From a bacterium (GTDB lineage Bacteria; Bacteroidota; Ignavibacteria; UBA10030), in NCBI GenBank assembly GCA_043803945.1, contig JAZDJN010000091.1, positions 1 through 64,000 on the forward strand: 64,000 bases of DNA, written 5' to 3'. The notes under the pieces are model-generated. The model saw only the letters and a list, made by a program, of their open reading frames with translations, was not told the origin of the DNA and searched no databases. Position numbers and translations under genes: made by a program. Positions 18,701-29,638 of this stretch are shown here, in pieces (positions within the stretch are counted from its first letter, which is position 1; each line of letters starts with the position of its first letter).

Positions 18701-21700
18701 TTACCGAATGAGCATCAACTTACGTGTCAGGCGGAATTCACCCGCTGTGAGCGAATAGAAGTATGTTCCGCTTGGGAGCGATGCCGCATTAAATTGAATC
18801 TGATACTCACCTGCCTTGAGCATTCTCTCCACAAGTGTTGCTACGTTCTTTCCAAGGAGACTGAACACTTCCAGCGTTACTTTGGAATCCGTTGGAATAG
18901 AATACCTGATCGTCGTCGACGGATTGAATGGGTTGGGGAAGTTTTGTTCAAGCACAAATCCAGCCGGTACCATCTTCTCATGGCCAATCTCACTTACAGA
19001 AATTGGTGTGATTGTCAGGAAAGCAGTTGCAGGCTGTGCCGCTCCATCGGACGATGAATGATACGCCGGGTTTGCTTTTACTGATCCCATAGAAAGATAG
19101 TTCACTTTATCGACAATCAGTGTATAGGATCCCGGCGTAAGGTCCTGAATTGTAAAGTTACCGCTCTGGTCCGTTATGCCGTACCCGGCAACATCTTCGG
19201 AATTCACCAACGCGTACACCATGACACCGGCAAGCGTACCTGCCTCACTGTTCCTGGCTGCTCCTCCACTTAGAGCAACAACACCTTGAATGGAGGTATA
19301 TCCTGCCATTGCTTTTACAAGCGGCTTCACGATAATCGTGATCGCTGCAACTGAATTTCCATTGATCGGGATTCTCGTTGCTTTCTCCCAGCTTGTGGTT
19401 GGACCCGAAATGCAATAGAATGTCGGTGTGTAATGCCCCAGCGGCAATGCGAAAATGATATAATTCCCCGGCGGCAGATTATTGAAATTATAGGCCCCGG
19501 TCGAATCGGTATCAGTCGTATAGGAGAGGGGAAGATTGGTGTATGTCTTCACAGCCGGATCAAGATAGGCCACTACTCTCGCCCTCAGCCCGGCTTTGGT
19601 TGCTGAATCCACAACTGTGCCGCTGATCTTGCCGGTTGAGACGGAGCTGATTTTCTTTAGCGTAAAGCTGATCTTCGTGGTATCTTTCGTTAACTTTATG
19701 ACATTGGCGGTGAGCAAATCCGATTTTCCATCGAAGAAGACATTCAAGTATCCGGGAGCCGTCGCCATTGCCGTATACGACCCTTGAGGCACCTTTACTG
19801 AGTATTTGCCGGTCGAATCCACACGAACTTTGTAAACATATTCCGAGGTCCCATCAATCCTTCCATCACCGTTAATCTGGATCGTGCTCACAAGCGGATC
19901 TGTTGGCTTTGGAATTTGTGAATTCATCGAATCGAAAAGATCACGGGTGCTGACTGTGCCCGATTCGCCAGGCATAAGTGAGACTCCGGCATTCAGACTG
20001 AATCCTGATGCGGTGAACACAACAGTAGCTTCCCGCATTGGTTTCTGGGTATCATCGAGAACGGATCCACTTACCGTATACAATGGAAGAACCACTTTTG
20101 CCTTCATAATGAAGTTCACTGTCGATGTTGCATTGGGACGCACGAGAATGAGTGTGGCTTTATCCGAACTCGCAGCTCCATCGTACCACTGTTCGAGATA
20201 GTCGCCGCGACTTGAGGTCGCCCGCGCGACATAGGTACCCGAATCGACACGAGTGATTGTATACGTACCGTCTGAGCCGGTTACACCTTTGATCTCCAGT
20301 ACCTGGAATGCATCCTTCTTATAGAGGCGCACATAGATTCCGGCAAGAGGTTTTCCAAGTGAATCCTTTACCACTCCTGCGACAGTTCCGGTCGGACCTT
20401 GAACTGCGACAGAGAATGATTGATCTGCCCGCCCGCCTTTTGTCGAGGTCACTAACAGTGCAGCTTTGAATATCCCTTTTTGATCCGGTACCCACTTGAT
20501 CAGTCCGGTGGCAGATTCAATCGTCATGCCATTCGGTTTGGCACTTAATTGATACGTTAGTGTTGCCGTTGGATCGGTTGAGGTGGCAATCACTTGATAG
20601 GTATAAGGAATATTGAGCGTTGCACTCTCTGCAGCTTTCGATGTTATCCTGACGATATCGCCTTTGGCGGTCAATTTAAAATTGACTGTCGTCGTAGTGT
20701 TCGTCTTCACAGGGAAATATGTTGCCTGCTCAACACTCATCACACCATCGTACCATTGTTCGAGATAATTCGAATTATAGGGTATTGCACGAGCAACGTA
20801 CGATCCGGTATCAACACGGATAATCGTATACTTGCCCAACGAATCAGTGATGCCCCTAATCTCAAAATATTGTATCGTATTTTTTTGATACAAACGGATA
20901 GTCACTTTGGTTAATGGTTTTCCCTCAGAATCTGTAACGATACCGGTAACGCTACCTGTTGGACCGCTAATGGTGACTCCAAACATCTGTTCAGCACGTC
21001 CTCCCCGTGATGAGGTAACGAGCAGTGAAGCTTTAAAGGTACCTTTCGACTGAGGAATCCAATTGATAAGTCCGGTAACTGCATCAATTGTCATGCCCTC
21101 TGGTTTCATGGTGAGCTGGTAACTCAATAAAACAGTTGGATCGGATGAGGTTGCTTTCACCTGGTAGGAGTAAAGTGTTCCAACGACTCCGCTTTCCAGA
21201 GGTTTTGAGGAAATGGCGATTACATCGTTTTTTACACTCAGTTTAAAATTCACGGTGACTGGCGCGTTTGGCTTCACTGTTATCGGAGTTGCTAACTCTG
21301 CATTGGTCACTCCATCGAACCATTGCTCATAAAGATCGCTGCGATTTGGAGTAGCACGGACAAGGTAGAGGCCCGAATCGACTTTACTGATGGTGTAATT
21401 ACCAAGCGAATCGGTGATACCTTTAAATTGGATTGAGAGTAAACTATTTTTGGGATAGAGATAAACAGTAGCTCCTTTCACAGATTTTCCTGCAGGATCT
21501 GTTACGCTCCCTGCAACTGTCCCCGTCGGGCCATTGACAACCACCGTAAACGGTTGTTCAGCGCGGCCCCCTCGCGTAGAGGTGACAACCACTACTACTT
21601 TGAAGGTACCTTTCTGCAGTGGGATCCATTTCAATAATCCAGTGGCCGGATCAATTGTCATACCTTCAGGTTTCATCGATAATTGATAGCTCAACGTTAC

Positions 21701-22150
21701 AGCGGGATCGGTTGTCGTCGCGACGACCTGATACGTGTATTGAACATTCAACGATGCCGACTCGGCCGGTTTCGAGGTGACACGAACCACATCGGTAACA
21801 TTGATGTTTACCATGTTGCTATAACGCATTGAACCATTTTTCATCACTGCTACCACATAATAGACGAAGATCGGTGGATTAACCGAGACTGGCGGGCGAT
21901 CGACCGATTCAATCGTTGTCGTAGAGTCAGTCCGGATAAATGCGAGTATCCCCGATGTTTGACCACGATACACCAGGAAGTATTTCACGGAATCTCCTGC
22001 TGGAGCGTTCCATTTGAGATACGTCGCTCCTCCTTCGTACTTCCCGCTTAAGGCAAAGTCAATCTTCGTGGATTGAGACCACAGTAACGTCGAGCAAAGA
22101 AGGATGCCGAGAATCAGCATTCCGAAAATAGAAAATATTTTTCGTTCCAT
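18701..22150 (-). CDS. Large secreted repeat protein (Ig-like + carboxypeptidase-regulatory-like domains) with C-terminal secretion domain
   Basis: Three ~190-aa units (YTYQV.AT...KPEGMTID..TGL..W.P + G.V.G.V.D..GK...EQWYDG); C-terminal QNFPNPFNPSTTI. Confidence 0.8.
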   Translation of the reverse strand: MERKIFSIFGMLILGILLCSTLLWSQSTKIDFALSGKYEGGATYLKWNAPAGDSVKYFLVYRGQTSGILAFIRTDSTTTIESVDRPPVSVNPPIFVYYVVAVMKNGSMRYSNMVNINVTDVVRVTSKPAESASLNVQYTYQVVATTTDPAVTLSYQLSMKPEGMTIDPATGLLKWIPLQKGTFKVVVVVTSTRGGRAEQPFTVVVNGPTGTVAGSVTDPAGKSVKGATVYLYPKNSLLSIQFKGITDSLGNYTISKVDSGLYLVRATPNRSDLYEQWFDGVTNAELATPITVKPNAPVTVNFKLSVKNDVIAISSKPLESGVVGTLYSYQVKATSSDPTVLLSYQLTMKPEGMTIDAVTGLINWIPQSKGTFKASLLVTSSRGGRAEQMFGVTISGPTGSVTGIVTDSEGKPLTKVTIRLYQKNTIQYFEIRGITDSLGKYTIIRVDTGSYVARAIPYNSNYLEQWYDGVMSVEQATYFPVKTNTTTTVNFKLTAKGDIVRITSKAAESATLNIPYTYQVIATSTDPTATLTYQLSAKPNGMTIESATGLIKWVPDQKGIFKAALLVTSTKGGRADQSFSVAVQGPTGTVAGVVKDSLGKPLAGIYVRLYKKDAFQVLEIKGVTGSDGTYTITRVDSGTYVARATSSRGDYLEQWYDGAASSDKATLILVRPNATSTVNFIMKAKVVLPLYTVSGSVLDDTQKPMREATVVFTASGFSLNAGVSLMPGESGTVSTRDLFDSMNSQIPKPTDPLVSTIQINGDGRIDGTSEYVYKVRVDSTGKYSVKVPQGSYTAMATAPGYLNVFFDGKSDLLTANVIKLTKDTTKISFTLKKISSVSTGKISGTVVDSATKAGLRARVVAYLDPAVKTYTNLPLSYTTDTDSTGAYNFNNLPPGNYIIFALPLGHYTPTFYCISGPTTSWEKATRIPINGNSVAAITIIVKPLVKAMAGYTSIQGVVALSGGAARNSEAGTLAGVMVYALVNSEDVAGYGITDQSGNFTIQDLTPGSYTLIVDKVNYLSMGSVKANPAYHSSSDGAAQPATAFLTITPISVSEIGHEKMVPAGFVLEQNFPNPFNPSTTIRYSIPTDSKVTLEVFSLLGKNVATLVERMLKAGEYQIQFNAASLPSGTYFYSLTAGEFRLTRKLMLIR

Positions 22151-22339
22151 ATAGCGTACCCCCATTTAAACTAATGTTATGAACTATATCAACAAAACAC
22201 TCTAGATCGAATGTGTTTACACCTCTTGATAGAATTATAGAAGTGAACACATACCAGAAATTATTCCCATGAAATTTACATCAATAGCAATTGATAGTCA
22301 ATAAGACGAACAGCGGCGTATCTGCAATCACCCACCTCT

Positions 22340-24679
22340 TTACCTTGAACTCTCCTTCTTGAGCCCCGACAAAGCTTTGCCTGGCAGTGGTTTAGCCATT
22401 TCAACCAGCAGGGCCAGCATCATCCGGGTACAATTCTGGACAAGCTGTGGATCGAGCTTGCCGGCTGTATCCGCAGGTTTGTGATAATAAGGATCGAGCC
22501 CACCCCAAATCTCCATCGCTGTTCCCTCGGAGATTTCCAGCGCCTGATAGCCCATCTGGAGAAATGATGCATGATCGCTTCCGCCGTAGCGTTCGAGGTG
22601 TGCATCAAGGGTAAAATTCAGATTGTACCGGCGATTCAGGATAAGCGCCGAATCCAGCAAGGGGCTCCATGGAGGGCTTGTACTTAGCGAGATACGAGCT
22701 GGATCGTTGAGGATTGGATAACCCAGCATATCGCCATTGACGACTGCATTAATGTTCATCCCCTGTTCTCTTGCATATTCTGCATAATAACGACTTCCAA
22801 CCAAACCAAGCTCTTCGGCTGCGACAGCCAGAAATTTAATTGTGTGGTTGAACCGGTACTTGCTGCAGATTCGAGCTGCCTCCATCACGGCAGCGACACC
22901 AGTTGCATTATCATTTGCACCCGGCACATCTTTCGCTGCTGAATCATAATGTCCAACAATGATTGAGACGATATCGGGATTTTCCGATCCGCGAAGCGTG
23001 GCACAAATGTTTTTTGATAGTGGACGGGTTGGGGAAAGAAGCTTCGAACCGAGAGATGACCATGATTGTCCGCGATTGTTGCTTATCAAAACAGATCCAT
23101 AGAAACCATATCCGGCAATGAGACTATCCTTGTATCGAATCCATCGCTGGATATATCGTAGTGGTGGAGAGACATCCTGCCAACTCTTTCCTCCATCTGA
23201 TGTTTCCGATACTCCGGAAGGATACCCTTTTCGAATCAGCAATCCTCTGACGCTATCGATAAAATAGACATCTGCCGGAATTCTTCCTTTCAATGTGATT
23301 TCAAATGTCTTCCAGGTCATTCCGCCATCGGTGGTTTTAAGAACTGTAGAATTATCTCCGGTGATCGTTCCATTATTCTGATCCCAAAAATGTATTGTAT
23401 ACAAATTCACTGCAACTCCAGAAGCCAGCTTCGACCATGTTACTCCTGTATCGGTTGACCGGAGAAGAATACCGGAAGCGCATGGAATCCACAGGATGTT
23501 ATTCCCGATATACTCCAATGTAGAGAGTTCCATATCGACACCAGAGTTTATCCGTTTCCACTCTTTGCCGCCATTCACAGTCAACTGTATTATTCCATTT
23601 CGTCCGATAACAATACACCGATCAGAGTTCAAACACTTCAGGTCAAGGGGCACGAGTGTTGGATCCATTTTTTGAGTCGTCCAGAGCTTTCCCTCATTTG
23701 TTGTTTTATAAATTTTACCGTCCATGCCTACACTAAACCCGATTTGAGTCGTGGCAAAAGATATTTTGCAGAGCGGTGGTGAATTCTTCCCTTCCAGACA
23801 TGTGAATGTCTCTCCGCCATTGCGAGAAGAGTACAAATCATTTCCATCCATCAATATCAGGAGGGTTTTCGAATCAATAATATTCATATCCAGGCAATCT
23901 GGTTTTCTTGTCTCAAACCTGAATGGTTCAACCTCGAGTCCGTACTGTTGAAATGTTTGCGTCAGATAAGCCGCAGCCGAGTCTTCTTGTGGAGAGTTTT
24001 CAACACGTGTGCCAAAGTTTTCAAGTGTTCTGATTGAGCGCATGAGTGAATCCTGAGAAACCATCCGGATCATTTCTTCGATCTGTGGGTTGGGAGTACC
24101 GGCTGGCATGGCATTTATTTTCTCGACGAACATTCGCTCTTTCGGTCCCTGGATTGGTATGATCGCAACCATCTTTCGGCTGAGTGTGATGGCATCACGC
24201 TTTGATACCTCCACACGATACATTCCCTCCTTGCCATTGAGAATTCTGAGTGTCGGAGCATACTTTTTCACATCGCTGATTGTTTTCCCGGGACTGAGTT
24301 TGAGCGTTGCAAGATAGATGTCGTCAAAATCGGCTAGGAAAAGAATTGCTGGAAGGAATATGTAGATAGTAAGAATTGGAATAACCACAGCAAGTGTAAC
24401 TTTACTCCAGTTGATTCTCAATACATCCGGATGAATCCGTTGTGATACTACCAGTCCTATAATTGTGAAACCGATCGCCGCTAAAACAAAAGAGAATTTA
24501 AATAATATGCTGGCATACATAAGCTTCTTCAAAATCAGATAGAAGACCGAACCCCACATGAGAAGGAGAAGAATGATGAGAAGCAGAGCGAGAACCTTGC
24601 TTGCCAATCCAGCAACTTTTACACTCTCTGAGGATGAATCAGTATGGTGATTATCTGAAGGGGAATTTGTGTGTTCCAT
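22340..24679 (-). CDS. Membrane-anchored M28 metallopeptidase with inserted BNR/YCF48-like repeats
   Basis: GHYDS, GANDNATG, AEELGL.GS, SDHASF and YH motifs; several T.DGG.TW Asp-boxes; N-terminal TM helices. Confidence 0.8.
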   Translation of the reverse strand: MEHTNSPSDNHHTDSSSESVKVAGLASKVLALLLIILLLLMWGSVFYLILKKLMYASILFKFSFVLAAIGFTIIGLVVSQRIHPDVLRINWSKVTLAVVIPILTIYIFLPAILFLADFDDIYLATLKLSPGKTISDVKKYAPTLRILNGKEGMYRVEVSKRDAITLSRKMVAIIPIQGPKERMFVEKINAMPAGTPNPQIEEMIRMVSQDSLMRSIRTLENFGTRVENSPQEDSAAAYLTQTFQQYGLEVEPFRFETRKPDCLDMNIIDSKTLLILMDGNDLYSSRNGGETFTCLEGKNSPPLCKISFATTQIGFSVGMDGKIYKTTNEGKLWTTQKMDPTLVPLDLKCLNSDRCIVIGRNGIIQLTVNGGKEWKRINSGVDMELSTLEYIGNNILWIPCASGILLRSTDTGVTWSKLASGVAVNLYTIHFWDQNNGTITGDNSTVLKTTDGGMTWKTFEITLKGRIPADVYFIDSVRGLLIRKGYPSGVSETSDGGKSWQDVSPPLRYIQRWIRYKDSLIAGYGFYGSVLISNNRGQSWSSLGSKLLSPTRPLSKNICATLRGSENPDIVSIIVGHYDSAAKDVPGANDNATGVAAVMEAARICSKYRFNHTIKFLAVAAEELGLVGSRYYAEYAREQGMNINAVVNGDMLGYPILNDPARISLSTSPPWSPLLDSALILNRRYNLNFTLDAHLERYGGSDHASFLQMGYQALEISEGTAMEIWGGLDPYYHKPADTAGKLDPQLVQNCTRMMLALLVEMAKPLPGKALSGLKKESSR

Positions 24680-24984: not shown

Positions 24985-25099
24985 ATAAGAAAAGCATAGC
25001 GCTTCGAACATCTCCTCCTTCACTTGCAGTATGGCTAAAAAAAACACCCGAGAAACTTTCGGGTGTTTTCACCGTCCACATTGTCATGCGAATGATCTT

Positions 25100-26422
25100 C
25101 TACTTTATTTCTGTAACTTTCATTATCGTCTCCAGACGAGTTTTGAACATTGCCTTCTGCGCTTCGGGAGCCAACTCGATAGCTTTTTCTCCGGCTTTCT
25201 TTGCTTCATCCAATTGCTTGTTTTTCACATAGATATTTGCAAGGGTCATATAGGCAGATGCAGAGGGATTCATTGTTACCACTTTCTTTGCGGCATCGAG
25301 AGCCCCCTCTAAATTCTTCCCTTGATTAGCCCAGAAATTGGCATAGGTAGAAAGAGCGTATTGATACATCGAAGTCTCGCGACTAATGAAATCCTTTCCA
25401 TAAACCTCTTCAGCCTTTGCTTGATCGGCTTTAAGCATGTACAATTCTGCAAGCATACTCACATACTGTGAATTGCTGCCATTTTTAGGAAGGTCGACTG
25501 CTTTTTGTGCAAGCTCGATTCCCTTGTCGAGGTTCTCTTTGCTCCGAATAATTCTCCGTACAACGGCACTCAGAACCATCGGATCGTCGGGATACTTTGC
25601 CAGGTAGTCCTCAAAGAACTTTTTTGCTTCAACACTATGTTTTGCGGAGTCTTCTGGCGTTGCATTCCTGGGTGTGGACATATAATAGGAGGAGAGTCGC
25701 TGGTAACCTGATTTTGCCATCTCCGTCGAGCCATACTTCTTGAGAAATGCTTTCATCGGCTCAGCATTGATTTTTGCACCTCTCAGTGTTTGGCCGGCGA
25801 CCTGGAATTCTGCAAACTGGGTGTAGGATACTTTCTCCTTGCCGTACTCCGTCGTACCCAACTTTCCATTTGGATCGAGAGCAATCAACTCTGCGTACAA
25901 CGCGGCAGCTTTGTCTTGATTGTACCGGCTGTCGTATTTTTTGGCAAGGTTAAAGATGACGGGAATATTTTTTGGATCTTTTTTGTACTGATCGGAATAG
26001 GACTTGAAGGTTTCTTTGCCTTTTACGGCATTGTCTACTTGCTCGTGGTATTTCTCAACTGCACCGCCGAATCCGACAATCCAATCGACTTCAGCTCCAT
26101 CATTGGCAAGAAACATTACTGTGGGAGTGGCACGGATGCTATACTTTGTAAAGATTGCTTTACCATCATCCTTGCTGTTATCAGCACGGAACATGATAAA
26201 GTTTGCATTGAAATAATCAGCGTACTTTTTATTCTCATAATATTGCTCACCGAGCAATTTGCAGAATCCTCACGTAGGAGAATAAAAATCTATTAATACC
26301 AACTTCTTCTCACTCTTTGCCTTCGCAAGCGCTTCGTCCAGGTTACCTGTAAACCAGACCTGGGAAAAAGCTGTGCCGACGAAAATGAGCAAGAGTAGTC
26401 CCAAAATAATTGCCCTTTTCAT
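25100..26422 (-). CDS. Probable selenoprotein: signal peptide + thioredoxin-like (UxxC) + TPR repeats, 440 aa with UGA read-through
   Basis: ATG at 26422 gives MKRAIILGLLLLIFVGTAFSQVWFTGNLDEALAKAKSEKKLVLIDFYSPT-TGA-GFCKLLGEQ..., in frame with ORF 25100..26257. The TGA at 26270-26272 occupies the first Cys position of the Trx motif; cis-Pro motif ATPT downstream. Confidence 0.8.
26242..26272 (-). promoter_or_regulatory. Putative bacterial SECIS element
   Basis: TGA + 11 nt (GGATTCTGCAA) + perfect 7-bp stem ATTGCTC-GGT-GAGCAAT with a G-rich apical loop. Confidence 0.65.
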
Positions 26423-26724
26423 CTCGATAAATCCTTCTAAATGTTAATGGTTGATAGTGAATTATCCATACGTTCTCCCTGGCAAAAGGTAATCGAATTT
26501 AACCTATGAATCAATTACTGTGTTTCAAAATTGATATCACATTAGGAAGACCGACGATATTGAATGAAAGATTAAATGGCTCGACATTGCTGCCGGACCC
26601 GCTTATGGATTGAGAGAAATCTGAACCTGCATGATTCCCGCTATCTTCGTCTGCACGAACGCCCCTGCTTGCGGGATCACTCTGGAAAAGCTTGGTTTTT
26701 ATTTTTCATTCTGCCGGAACTGTG

Positions 26725-28074
26725 TCAGTTGCCTTGTTTCTTTTTCTCCCGGTTGGCATGCCTGCCTGTGCCGTCTCCTTCGTCCAGAATTCCACCGGTG
26801 GGATTCAATTGATCGAGTGCCGCCTGCAACCGCTTGCGCACGGCGATTGCCGCGGGGGCTTTCGTATCGGCTGCTAAGAGTTTCTCTTCGAACGGAGCGT
26901 TACTCATGTCGAACAGTTCGCCCGCTTGATTCAATTTCCATCCGGCATCCCGGACATACCACTGCCGGGCGAGTTGAATGAAGATCAATTCGCGCGACTG
27001 CCCTTTATTACCATAAACTTGCGCGGCGAAACTGCGTCCGTCAATGGTGGTGTTTTGGGGAAGTTTCGCTCCTGCCAGATCAGCAAACGTCGGGAGGAAA
27101 TCGCTGGAATCGATCATCTCATGGGAAACTTTACCAGCGGGTGTCGTACCGGGCCAGTTGACGATCAGCGGCTCACGGCTGCCTCCTTCGAGCATCGAAC
27201 CCTTTTGACCGGAGAGGCGTCGACCGCCGATTGTCGCCCGGTCTGCATGTCCACCTGCAGTGCCGTTGTCGCTGAAGAAAACGATCAGGGTTTTCTCGCG
27301 AAGCTTCAGGCGATCGAGTTCAGCAATCAACTTACCGACAAGCATGTCCATGTAGGTAACGTTGTCCGCGTAAAAGTCTTTGCTGTTCGGCGCGCTATCG
27401 GGTGTGGGCAGGATTTCTGCATGCACATGCGACATTGAGTAATAGAGATAGAACGGTTTTTCTTGGTGCATTGTGATGAAGTCAATAACATGCTGATGCA
27501 TCACATCGGGCATGTATTCTTTATCGTGAAGGACTTTTTCCTCGCCGTTGACGAGATAGGTTCGGCCTTTGGCCTGCGTGTTCCAGTAGATACCGCTTCC
27601 GGTAAACTTCAGGTAGTAGTCGAAACCAAAGTCGTCCGGATTCAGTGGAAGCTGGCCCCATTTACCGATCGCAGCAGTGACGTAGCCCGCCGGCTTCAGG
27701 ACATTGGGAATCATGGTTTCGACTGAGGGTTTCATGAGCCCAGTGCTATCCTGGTTCGTGGCACCGGTGCGAAACAAGTAGCGCCCCGTCAGGATGGTTG
27801 CACGGGATGGTCCGCACAACGATGGCGTATAAGCATGGGTGAAGCGAACACCACCGCGTGCAAGCTGGTCAATGTTTGGCGTCTTGTAATTGTCCGCACC
27901 GTAGCAACTCACCTCGCCGATACCGTAGTCATCTGCAAGAATGAAGATGATGTTGGGCTTCTTGTCTTGGAGCAGCATGCCAGGAAGGAGATCATTGCCA
28001 AACACATAGTCATGCGCTGCTGCGCTCCCGGCAGCAATTACGCCGGCAGCTTTGATAAAGTTACGTCGTTGCAT
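26725..28074 (-). CDS. Tat-exported arylsulfatase (S1 family)
   Basis: RRNFIK Tat motif; KPNIIFILADD, CGPSR..ILTG, GKW and SDNG motifs. Confidence 0.9.
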   Translation of the reverse strand: MQRRNFIKAAGVIAAGSAAAHDYVFGNDLLPGMLLQDKKPNIIFILADDYGIGEVSCYGADNYKTPNIDQLARGGVRFTHAYTPSLCGPSRATILTGRYLFRTGATNQDSTGLMKPSVETMIPNVLKPAGYVTAAIGKWGQLPLNPDDFGFDYYLKFTGSGIYWNTQAKGRTYLVNGEEKVLHDKEYMPDVMHQHVIDFITMHQEKPFYLYYSMSHVHAEILPTPDSAPNSKDFYADNVTYMDMLVGKLIAELDRLKLREKTLIVFFSDNGTAGGHADRATIGGRRLSGQKGSMLEGGSREPLIVNWPGTTPAGKVSHEMIDSSDFLPTFADLAGAKLPQNTTIDGRSFAAQVYGNKGQSRELIFIQLARQWYVRDAGWKLNQAGELFDMSNAPFEEKLLAADTKAPAAIAVRKRLQAALDQLNPTGGILDEGDGTGRHANREKKKQGN

Positions 28075-29565: not shown

Positions 29566-29638
29566 TGGACAGGGAGGGAATTGAACCCCCGACACATGGA
29601 TTTTCAGTCCATTGCTCTACCAACTGAGCTACCTGTCC
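29566..29638 (-). tRNA. tRNA-Phe (GAA)
   Basis: GGACAGGTAGCTCAGTTGGTAGAGCAATGGACT-GAA-AATCCATGTGTCGGGGGTTCAATTCCCTCCCTGTCCA; 73 nt; CCA not encoded. Confidence 0.97.

Follow-up and report, generated by a model that had tools for sequence, protein, structure and literature searches.

Whether a single in-frame TGA ends a gene or is read as an amino acid is the question raised by positions 25100–26422 (minus strand) of the DNA analysed here, a window of 64,000 nucleotides (nt) on contig C91 of a bacterium of the class Ignavibacteria. A mechanical list of open reading frames (ORFs) cuts this region in two, giving a 50-residue ORF at 26270–26422 and a 385-residue ORF at 25100–26257 with a TTG start. 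Translated through the TGA, the region gives 440 residues followed by a TAG stop, and the sole in-frame TGA is codon 51 (26270–26272). We consider it highly probable that 25100–26422 is one gene for an exported selenoprotein of 440 residues, in which selenocysteine (Sec, U) is inserted at position 51 (U51) and which acts as a periplasmic thiol/selenol-disulfide oxidoreductase. The reading of codon 51 as selenocysteine is strongly supported by sequence comparison, and a function as periplasmic reductase with a putatively client-binding tetratricopeptide repeat (TPR) domain is proposed. The elements of the gene are as follows.

26432–26437, minus strand: Shine-Dalgarno-like GAAGGA, 9 nt 5' of the ATG at 26422, read from the sequence.
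25100–26422, minus strand: full selenoprotein gene as translated; its whole length (residues 1–440, one TGA) aligns with read-through homologues.
26363–26422, minus strand: predicted signal peptide, residues 1–20, MKRAIILGLLLLIFVGTAFS followed by QVWF; based on homologue leaders, with the cleavage site placed by eye.
26270–26272, minus strand: UGA codon 51, read as selenocysteine, the first residue of a U-G-F-C redox motif; based on translation and conservation in homologues.
26242–26258, minus strand: selenocysteine insertion sequence (SECIS) hairpin, AUUGCUC, loop GGU, GAGCAAU, encoding L-L-G-E-Q; based on folding and covariation.
26021–26353, minus strand: thioredoxin-fold domain, residues 24–134; based on Pfam and an AlphaFold model.
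25106–26008, minus strand: all-helical TPR-like domain, residues 139–439; based on Pfam (TPR_2, TPR_19, TPR_14), AlphaFold and Foldseek.

The 440 codons contain no stop besides the TGA at codon 51, and no frameshift. The N-terminal residues are MKRAIILGLLLLIFVGTAFSQVWF, and U51 stands in the context SPT-U-GFC, in longer form ...LDEALAKAKSEKKLVLIDFYSPT-U-GFC and ...KKLVLIDFYSPT-U-GFCKLLGEQ..., with the last residue of the redox motif, C54, encoded at 26261–26263. Behind UGFC the translation continues with RATPT, the cis-Pro motif (P100), and then with helical repeats. A leader of the form MKK-hydrophobic-A-x-A, with the predicted cleavage point between this last A and a following Q, is found in every homologue. 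The original prediction, made from the sequence alone, had carried the frame past 26257 up to the ATG at 26422, with which the translation and the ORF list agree, and had described a signal peptide, a single TGA at the place of the attacking Cys (T-U-G-F-C), a cis-Pro motif and TPR-like helices, all of which are in the sequence. It had also held that standard annotation would truncate the protein and lose its active site; the database form (P0002) has 385 residues and is 100% identical.

Homologous loci were retrieved with the peptide pattern E[VIY]DWx[VI]G[YF][GD][PG], which lies about 60 codons 3' of the TGA, so that the retrieval did not select for the TGA itself. The aligned codon is TGA in all 74 loci returned (69, 2 and 3 over three rounds), Cys or TGG being found in none, and when tandem paralogues are counted in, TGA is present in 93 of 93 gene copies. 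The 74 loci come from species-representative genomes, mostly of Aminicenantes, with one to four copies per locus. By record title, 48 are Aminicenantes, 16 are 'uncultured Eubacteriales', which cluster with Aminicenantes in the tree, three each are Ignavibacteria/Ignavibacteriales/Ignavibacteriota, Acidobacteria-type and 'uncultured bacterium', and one is Bacteroidota. Tandem paralogues occur at 16 of the 74 loci (e.g. L063, L073, L098, L100 and L115), where two to four copies each have their own TGA and hairpin. Conservation of the protein extends to either side of the TGA and takes in the roughly 50 preceding codons with the signal peptide (alignment A3) as well as the block WFxGxLDEAxAKAK..K.vL.DF.S; C54 and P100 are invariant in this alignment. 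Among the 93 copies the redox motif reads UGSC in 41, UGGC in 31, UGAC in 11, UPSC in five, UPGC in three, and UGTC and UGNC in one each, one subclade having U-P-[S/G]-C in place of U-G-x-C; UGFC was seen only in the window copy. The family thus appears from its sequences to be large, centred on Aminicenantes and apparently always selenocysteine-containing.

The hairpin that follows the TGA has seven base pairs and a loop of 3 nt, with a folding energy of -7.1 kcal/mol. Its stem begins 11 nt and its loop 18 nt beyond the UGA; the spacing rule for bacterial SECIS elements used in the bSECISearch literature is 16–37 nt from the UGA to the apical loop. When 90 distinct sequences were aligned without gaps, each of them showed all seven core pairs, and the first loop base, G, was invariant. 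Compensatory changes are seen at three pairs: 25–39 is C-G in 80 sequences and U-A in 10, 30–34 is G-C in 69 and C-G in 21, and 24–40 is A-U in 83, G-U in five and C-G in two. The covariation score is 0.211 compared with 0.081 in shuffled alignments, none of 500 shuffles reaching 0.211, and when the 3' partners were slid by one to three columns as a control the score was at most 0.054. An outer eighth pair is weaker and is unpaired in 19 of the 90 sequences. At two of the covarying positions the changes are synonymous (Leu UUG/CUG with Gln CAA/CAG), and the third ties the choice of Leu codon to a Gln/Glu change. Covariation at synonymous sites indicates that it is the RNA structure that keeps the peptide Leu-Leu-x-(Gln/Glu)-Gln constant, and hairpin pairing accounts for the conservation of this peptide across the family, as judged from the aligned sequences.

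The genome encodes the machinery for selenocysteine, whose presence the original prediction had left to be searched for. The four components all exceed curated cut-offs and lie together at 116–130 kb of another contig, C87.

C87 116333–117694: selA, 593.6 bits.
C87 117744–119609: selB, 377 bits.
C87 121270–122193: selD, itself with one TGA, 324.4 bits.
C87 129548–129642: tRNA-Sec, 62.9 bits (cut-off 47), called by ARAGORN as SeC with anticodon tca.

C87 and the window contig C91 have equal GC content (0.475), and the tetranucleotide composition is typical. Otherwise TGA is an ordinary stop in this genome, ending 456 of the 1456 ORFs of at least 400 residues. Further along C87, 20–35 kb beyond the sel cluster, are two AhpC/TSA-family genes that may encode exported UxxC selenoproteins, with TGA at 148493 (T-U-L-E-C) and 155209 (K-U-R-E-C); both have a leader and similar downstream hairpins, and C87 from about 116 to 156 kb looks like a selenium 'island'. 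The genome has at least four UGA-containing genes, three of which encode exported thiol-redox proteins. A crude genome scan for UxxC or CxxU at a TGA with a hairpin gave 167 candidates, mostly noise, and served as a cross-check only for selD and one AhpC/TSA match. Within the window, a weak match to the tRNA-Sec model (29567–29638, minus strand, 33.3 bits) falls under the cut-off and presumably reflects an ordinary tRNA gene.

In the DNA of a separate study one contig covers 26195–26342 with three differences, none of them listed at the TGA, which is weak independent evidence for the codon. From the RNA runs, one (X1) gave a single contig of 182 nt that matches 26302–26480 exactly, another (X2) gave short contigs from a relative, and two (X3 and X4) gave no contig at the locus.

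The N-terminal domain has a thioredoxin fold. Thioredoxin_2 (PF13098; 47.5 bits, cut-off 27), Thioredoxin_7 (PF13899) and Thioredoxin (PF00085) all match above cut-off over residues 24–118, and TPR_2 and TPR_19 match over residues 369–421. An AlphaFold model, built from an alignment of 36 read-through translations, has a mean confidence (predicted local distance difference test, pLDDT) of 91.7 and a predicted template modelling score (pTM) of 0.84. In this model residues 28–134 form a beta-alpha-beta thioredoxin fold, with a strand at 41–47, U51 opening the helix 52–62 and T99-P100 preceding the strand 101–105, and helices run from 139 to 439. The top Foldseek matches are consensus TPR and OGT TPR domains, i.e. 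TPR superhelices. For the thioredoxin domain of the A3 family profile, the best match in the PDB is 2kuc_A, a putative disulphide isomerase (E = 1.8e-16), DsbD gamma domains come next (E about 1e-6), and two full-length DsbD-type ORFs are present in the genome.

These features suggest the following mechanism. Translation starts at the ATG at 26422 behind the Shine-Dalgarno-like motif, and SelB carrying Sec-tRNA-Sec would recognise the hairpin and insert selenocysteine instead of allowing termination. After export by the Sec translocon and removal of the 20-residue signal peptide, the product would work as a periplasmic thiol/selenol-disulfide oxidoreductase. The nucleophilic attack would fall to U51, at the N-terminal end of helix alpha-1, with C54 as resolving residue and T99-P100 as cis-Pro loop, and the TPR domain of about 300 residues may hold unfolded or peptide-like clients at the active site. 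The protein would most likely work in the reductive direction, to repair or protect envelope proteins that have been oxidised, and its electrons would probably come from one or other of the two full-length DsbD proteins.

The genes next to the homologues show several recurrent associations. The gene immediately upstream is selD in five loci (L045, L052, L057, L074 and L106), in the same orientation and 82–225 nt away; it scores 369 bits in L045. A protein with a DsbD_N domain is encoded nearby in five loci, in four of them 17–66 nt downstream on the same strand and in the fifth (L047) on the opposite strand, about 2 kb upstream. The DsbD_N ORF lies 46–66 nt downstream of the selenoprotein gene in L074 and L106, and 29 nt downstream in L060, where no selD ORF was found upstream. 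A thioredoxin-reductase-like gene is adjacent and convergent in five loci. In 21 of the 74 loci (L083–L116), many of them from Aminicenantes, cydB, for cytochrome bd oxidase subunit II, is the next gene upstream, with the same orientation, and O-methyltransferase and esterase genes often follow such cydB-linked selenoprotein genes. Over the homologous loci as a whole, an O-methyltransferase gene is among the neighbours in 15 and esterase genes in 14. No cydB was found in the window genome, and a cytochrome bd role for the window gene was therefore dropped.

Several observations weigh against reading the window gene as a functional selenoprotein of this kind. The energy of the hairpin is modest, as 6 of 200 shuffled sequences fold equally well, and in a context of 81 nt the z-score is -0.04; the SECIS case rests on covariation, not on folding energy. 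A scan of 25000–26800 against Rfam at E <= 1 gave no match, Rfam appearing to hold no model that fits the hairpin. The only contig from an RNA library at the locus (26302–26480) ends 30 nt short of the UGA, none of the reads showing transcription across it, and RNA libraries may include DNA. The gene has a sulfatase gene on one side and an M28 peptidase gene on the other and stands by itself, a neighbourhood without functional hint, and the cyd link of Aminicenantes does not carry over to it. Furthermore, the window copy is the most divergent of its clade, with an end branch of 0.52 and its unique UGFC motif, it reads GFGGAV where the family has GYGPPP, and it lacks a TPR segment of about 60 residues that is present in most homologues. 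Given this divergence, some loss of function in the window copy may have occurred.

The alternative that survives best accepts a true selenoprotein but gives it another function: the protein could be an oxidase or isomerase of the DsbA/DsbC kind or a peroxidase-type scavenger, or its TPR domain could dock to a partner complex (in Aminicenantes, for instance, cytochrome bd) rather than hold unfolded clients. The cydB genes upstream of the homologues favour such docking, and the two AhpC/TSA-family candidates with UxxC and a leader suggest that the envelope generally needs defence against oxidants. The thioredoxin domain is, however, nearest to reductive domains of the DsbD-gamma and thioredoxin types, and the genes that adjoin homologues include DsbD_N-domain and thioredoxin-reductase-like genes; a Thr ahead of the cis-Pro, as here, is typical of those periplasmic members of the fold that reduce or isomerise, and docking to cytochrome bd finds no cydB counterpart in the window genome. 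On balance we regard a non-reductive or docking role as possible yet unlikely, and prefer the periplasmic reductase.

Read-through might also proceed without selenium, if a suppressor tRNA or near-cognate decoding placed Trp, Cys or some other residue at the UGA. Trp stands at the site in six database entries (P0006, P0012, P0072, P0120, P0372 and P0374), and Ser in P0310. This last entry is a family fragment of 153 residues with Ser at the selenocysteine position (AG-S-GGC), which could be a real variant, an error or an odd translation. For two of the Trp entries near-identical DNA loci are available (L060 for P0006 and L066 for P0012), and since both carry TGA, the Trp was most likely introduced by an alternative code of the gene caller. 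TGA ends close to a third of the long ORFs of the window genome, and the tRNA found there is a bona fide tRNA-Sec. Moreover, the site is the nucleophile of a CxxC-type motif, at which Trp would abolish activity. Read-through of this kind is thus very improbable, and insertion of selenocysteine is the preferred reading.

Still less weight falls on the view that the locus makes two products, a leader peptide of 50 residues and a TPR protein that stays in the cytoplasm and is translated anew from the TTG at 26257, a position that is Leu or Met in homologues. Start-like codons are common there, 39 of the 150 best-matching representatives starting at profile position 55–56, directly behind the redox motif. 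Yet the TTG lies inside the hairpin stem and has no Shine-Dalgarno-like motif ahead of it, the Leu codons at this position are accounted for by the hairpin, and a start here would split the thioredoxin fold between strand beta-1 and helix alpha-1, with loss of the conserved signal peptide, the beta-1 strand and the CxxC-type motif. Finally, a simple nonsense mutation in a dead or decaying gene, which would suit the calling of the TGA as a stop by gene callers, the long branch of the window copy and its lost TPR segment, is effectively refuted by conservation, as the same TGA stands in 74 of 74 loci of different species between protein segments conserved on both sides, followed by a covarying hairpin, in a genome with the selenocysteine machinery and in a frame of 440 codons free of other stops and frameshifts.

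The state of the databases and the existence of Cys counterparts were examined with a profile search of 1.84 billion representatives, which gave 368 proteins at E <= 1e-30; the 150 representatives mentioned above are the best of these. Database relatives either begin right behind the motif (MLGQQ... or LLGQQ...) or show Trp at the site. The site is covered by 18 representatives, with CxxC in 14, Trp in two, Ser in one and a garbled sequence in one. The original prediction had proposed an alignment to see whether the position alternates between Cys and TGA. Cys is found in one full-length protein (P0242), which has CQGC at the site and is 37% identical, and in a family of shorter exported thioredoxin-TPR proteins. 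P0242 is the only full-length Cys form among close relatives, with none among the 74 retrieved loci; it falls inside the selenocysteine clade of a quick tree, on a long branch and with weak support (83), which hints at a replacement of selenocysteine by Cys, a tentative interpretation. The shorter CxxC proteins (about 350 residues; P0342, P0347, P0354, P0366 and others) have the same architecture and leader, align over profile positions 1 to about 297 and form the outgroup of the tree. They differ from the family in having Cys for selenocysteine (a few have Trp, possibly TGA), in their length and in lacking the Leu-Leu-x-Gln-Gln hairpin peptide.

Thioredoxin-fold UxxC selenoproteins are well known as a kind. 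A 2026 review lists 119 selenoprotein families, and its Table 1 includes a thiol:disulfide interchange protein family (PF13098, UxxC) (PMC13188914). The window protein shares with this family the Pfam domain and the place of selenocysteine as first residue of UxxC, a likeness of broad kind that need not mean orthology, and is set apart from it by the description in the table entry, which names PF13098 only and no TPR. A search of the review's main text gave 0 occurrences of either 'TPR' or 'tetratricopeptide', and no TPR-containing selenoprotein is in its catalogue. A UGSC-containing selenoprotein (NF041046) from Sargasso Sea and GOS metagenomes is given without a Pfam domain in the GOS table, and a thioredoxin-like fold was suspected for it (PMC2398784). 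U-G-S-C is also the commonest form in the present family (41 of 93 copies), but the window copy has UGFC and matches three thioredoxin Pfam families, and NF041046 is absent among the 15 NCBIfam matches of the window protein at E <= 0.01. For the thioredoxin domain the best of these matches are the C-terminal region of TsoB (43 bits, cut-off 805) and DsbD (37.9 bits, cut-off 330), far under their cut-offs, and the window protein differs from both in having no membrane or rhodanese domain. The review table gives TsoB a UxxxxU motif (PMC13188914).

The order of domains, thioredoxin at the N-terminus and then TPR, is shared with the chaperedoxin CnoX/YbbN of Escherichia coli and Salmonella (3qou and 3qdn), and one database source names a relative of the window protein 'thioredoxin-like negative regulator of GroEL'. 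Among the Foldseek matches, which here span both domains, 3qou takes rank 13 (E = 2.7e-5, TM-scores 0.21/0.32, root-mean-square deviation 20.7) and its Salmonella homologue rank 32; as the TM-scores are only 0.21/0.32, the arrangement of the domains appears to differ. The window protein further has a much longer TPR domain of about 300 residues, a complete U-x-x-C motif and a signal peptide, placed by eye, which would make it non-cytoplasmic, unlike CnoX/YbbN. E. coli YbbN has SQHC at the corresponding place. A literature search found no report of such a protein or of selenocysteine in Aminicenantes or Ignavibacteria, supplementary tables lying outside the search, and PMC5029168 contains no passage on Ignavibacteria or Acidobacteria.

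The original prediction had called the use of selenocysteine poorly documented in this lineage, and the genomes bear this out, as, out of 201 genomes sampled from the class, 2 have selA above cut-off, the window genome included, and none of 40 relatives within its family and order does. A protein search of these 40 relatives gave no orthologue, the best match being 24% identical and without a stop, and no orthologue was found in the other selA-positive genome of the class (G044). In the quick tree, whose branches are long, the window protein groups with three Ignavibacteriota sequences (support 100), and this group is nested in a clade of 23 rows (support 98), the remainder of which is labelled Aminicenantes or 'Eubacteriales'. 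Such nesting fits a transfer of the gene into the Ignavibacteria lineage. The genome (G000) has 5.54 Mb and is larger than all 40 sampled relatives of the family and order (1.6 to 4.4 Mb). GlmS encoded in the window is at most 74% identical to proteins of metagenome-assembled genomes named Bacteroidota, Ignavibacteriales or Ignavibacteriae.

The selenoprotein gene has the following surroundings in the window.

26725–28074, minus strand: sulfatase gene, upstream, about 300 nt away.
25036–25070, minus strand: predicted intrinsic terminator, a stem-loop and U run about 30 nt past the stop codon; fold -19.1 kcal/mol, z-score -4.2.
22340–24679, minus strand: downstream gene for a protein of 779 residues with BNR repeats and an M28 peptidase domain.
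18701–22165, minus strand: downstream gene for a protein of 1154 residues with many Ig-like and CarboxypepD_reg domains and a type IX secretion sorting tail (Por_Secre_tail).

With its own terminator and the gap of about 300 nt to the sulfatase gene, the selenoprotein gene looks monocistronic. The terminator is not in the output of a simple consensus promoter/terminator scan, and the sigma-70-like matches of that scan all lie within coding sequence and were set aside.

Every database copy seen is wrong, being either cut behind the active site and named 'tetratricopeptide repeat protein' or given Trp at the catalytic position, and a thioredoxin-fold redox enzyme has thereby become invisible to functional surveys. 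The family adds an exported thioredoxin-TPR architecture to the selenoproteins, one that is not among the 119 families of the 2026 catalogue, and offers a clean case of SECIS pairing that shapes a conserved peptide. More speculatively, and in our view rather doubtful, the window protein might be the founding member of an uncatalogued, almost always selenocysteine-containing family of exported 'seleno-chaperedoxins', in which a selenocysteine-based thioredoxin domain, joined to the long TPR domain that binds clients, would serve anaerobes in the repair of oxidised envelope proteins; the gene and the C87 selenocysteine 'island' (selA, selB, selD, tRNA-Sec and the two exported Prx/TlpA-like selenoproteins) might then have come from Aminicenantes-like donors. 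The gene marks a rare user of selenocysteine in its class and, if this is true, the window genome would be one of very few.

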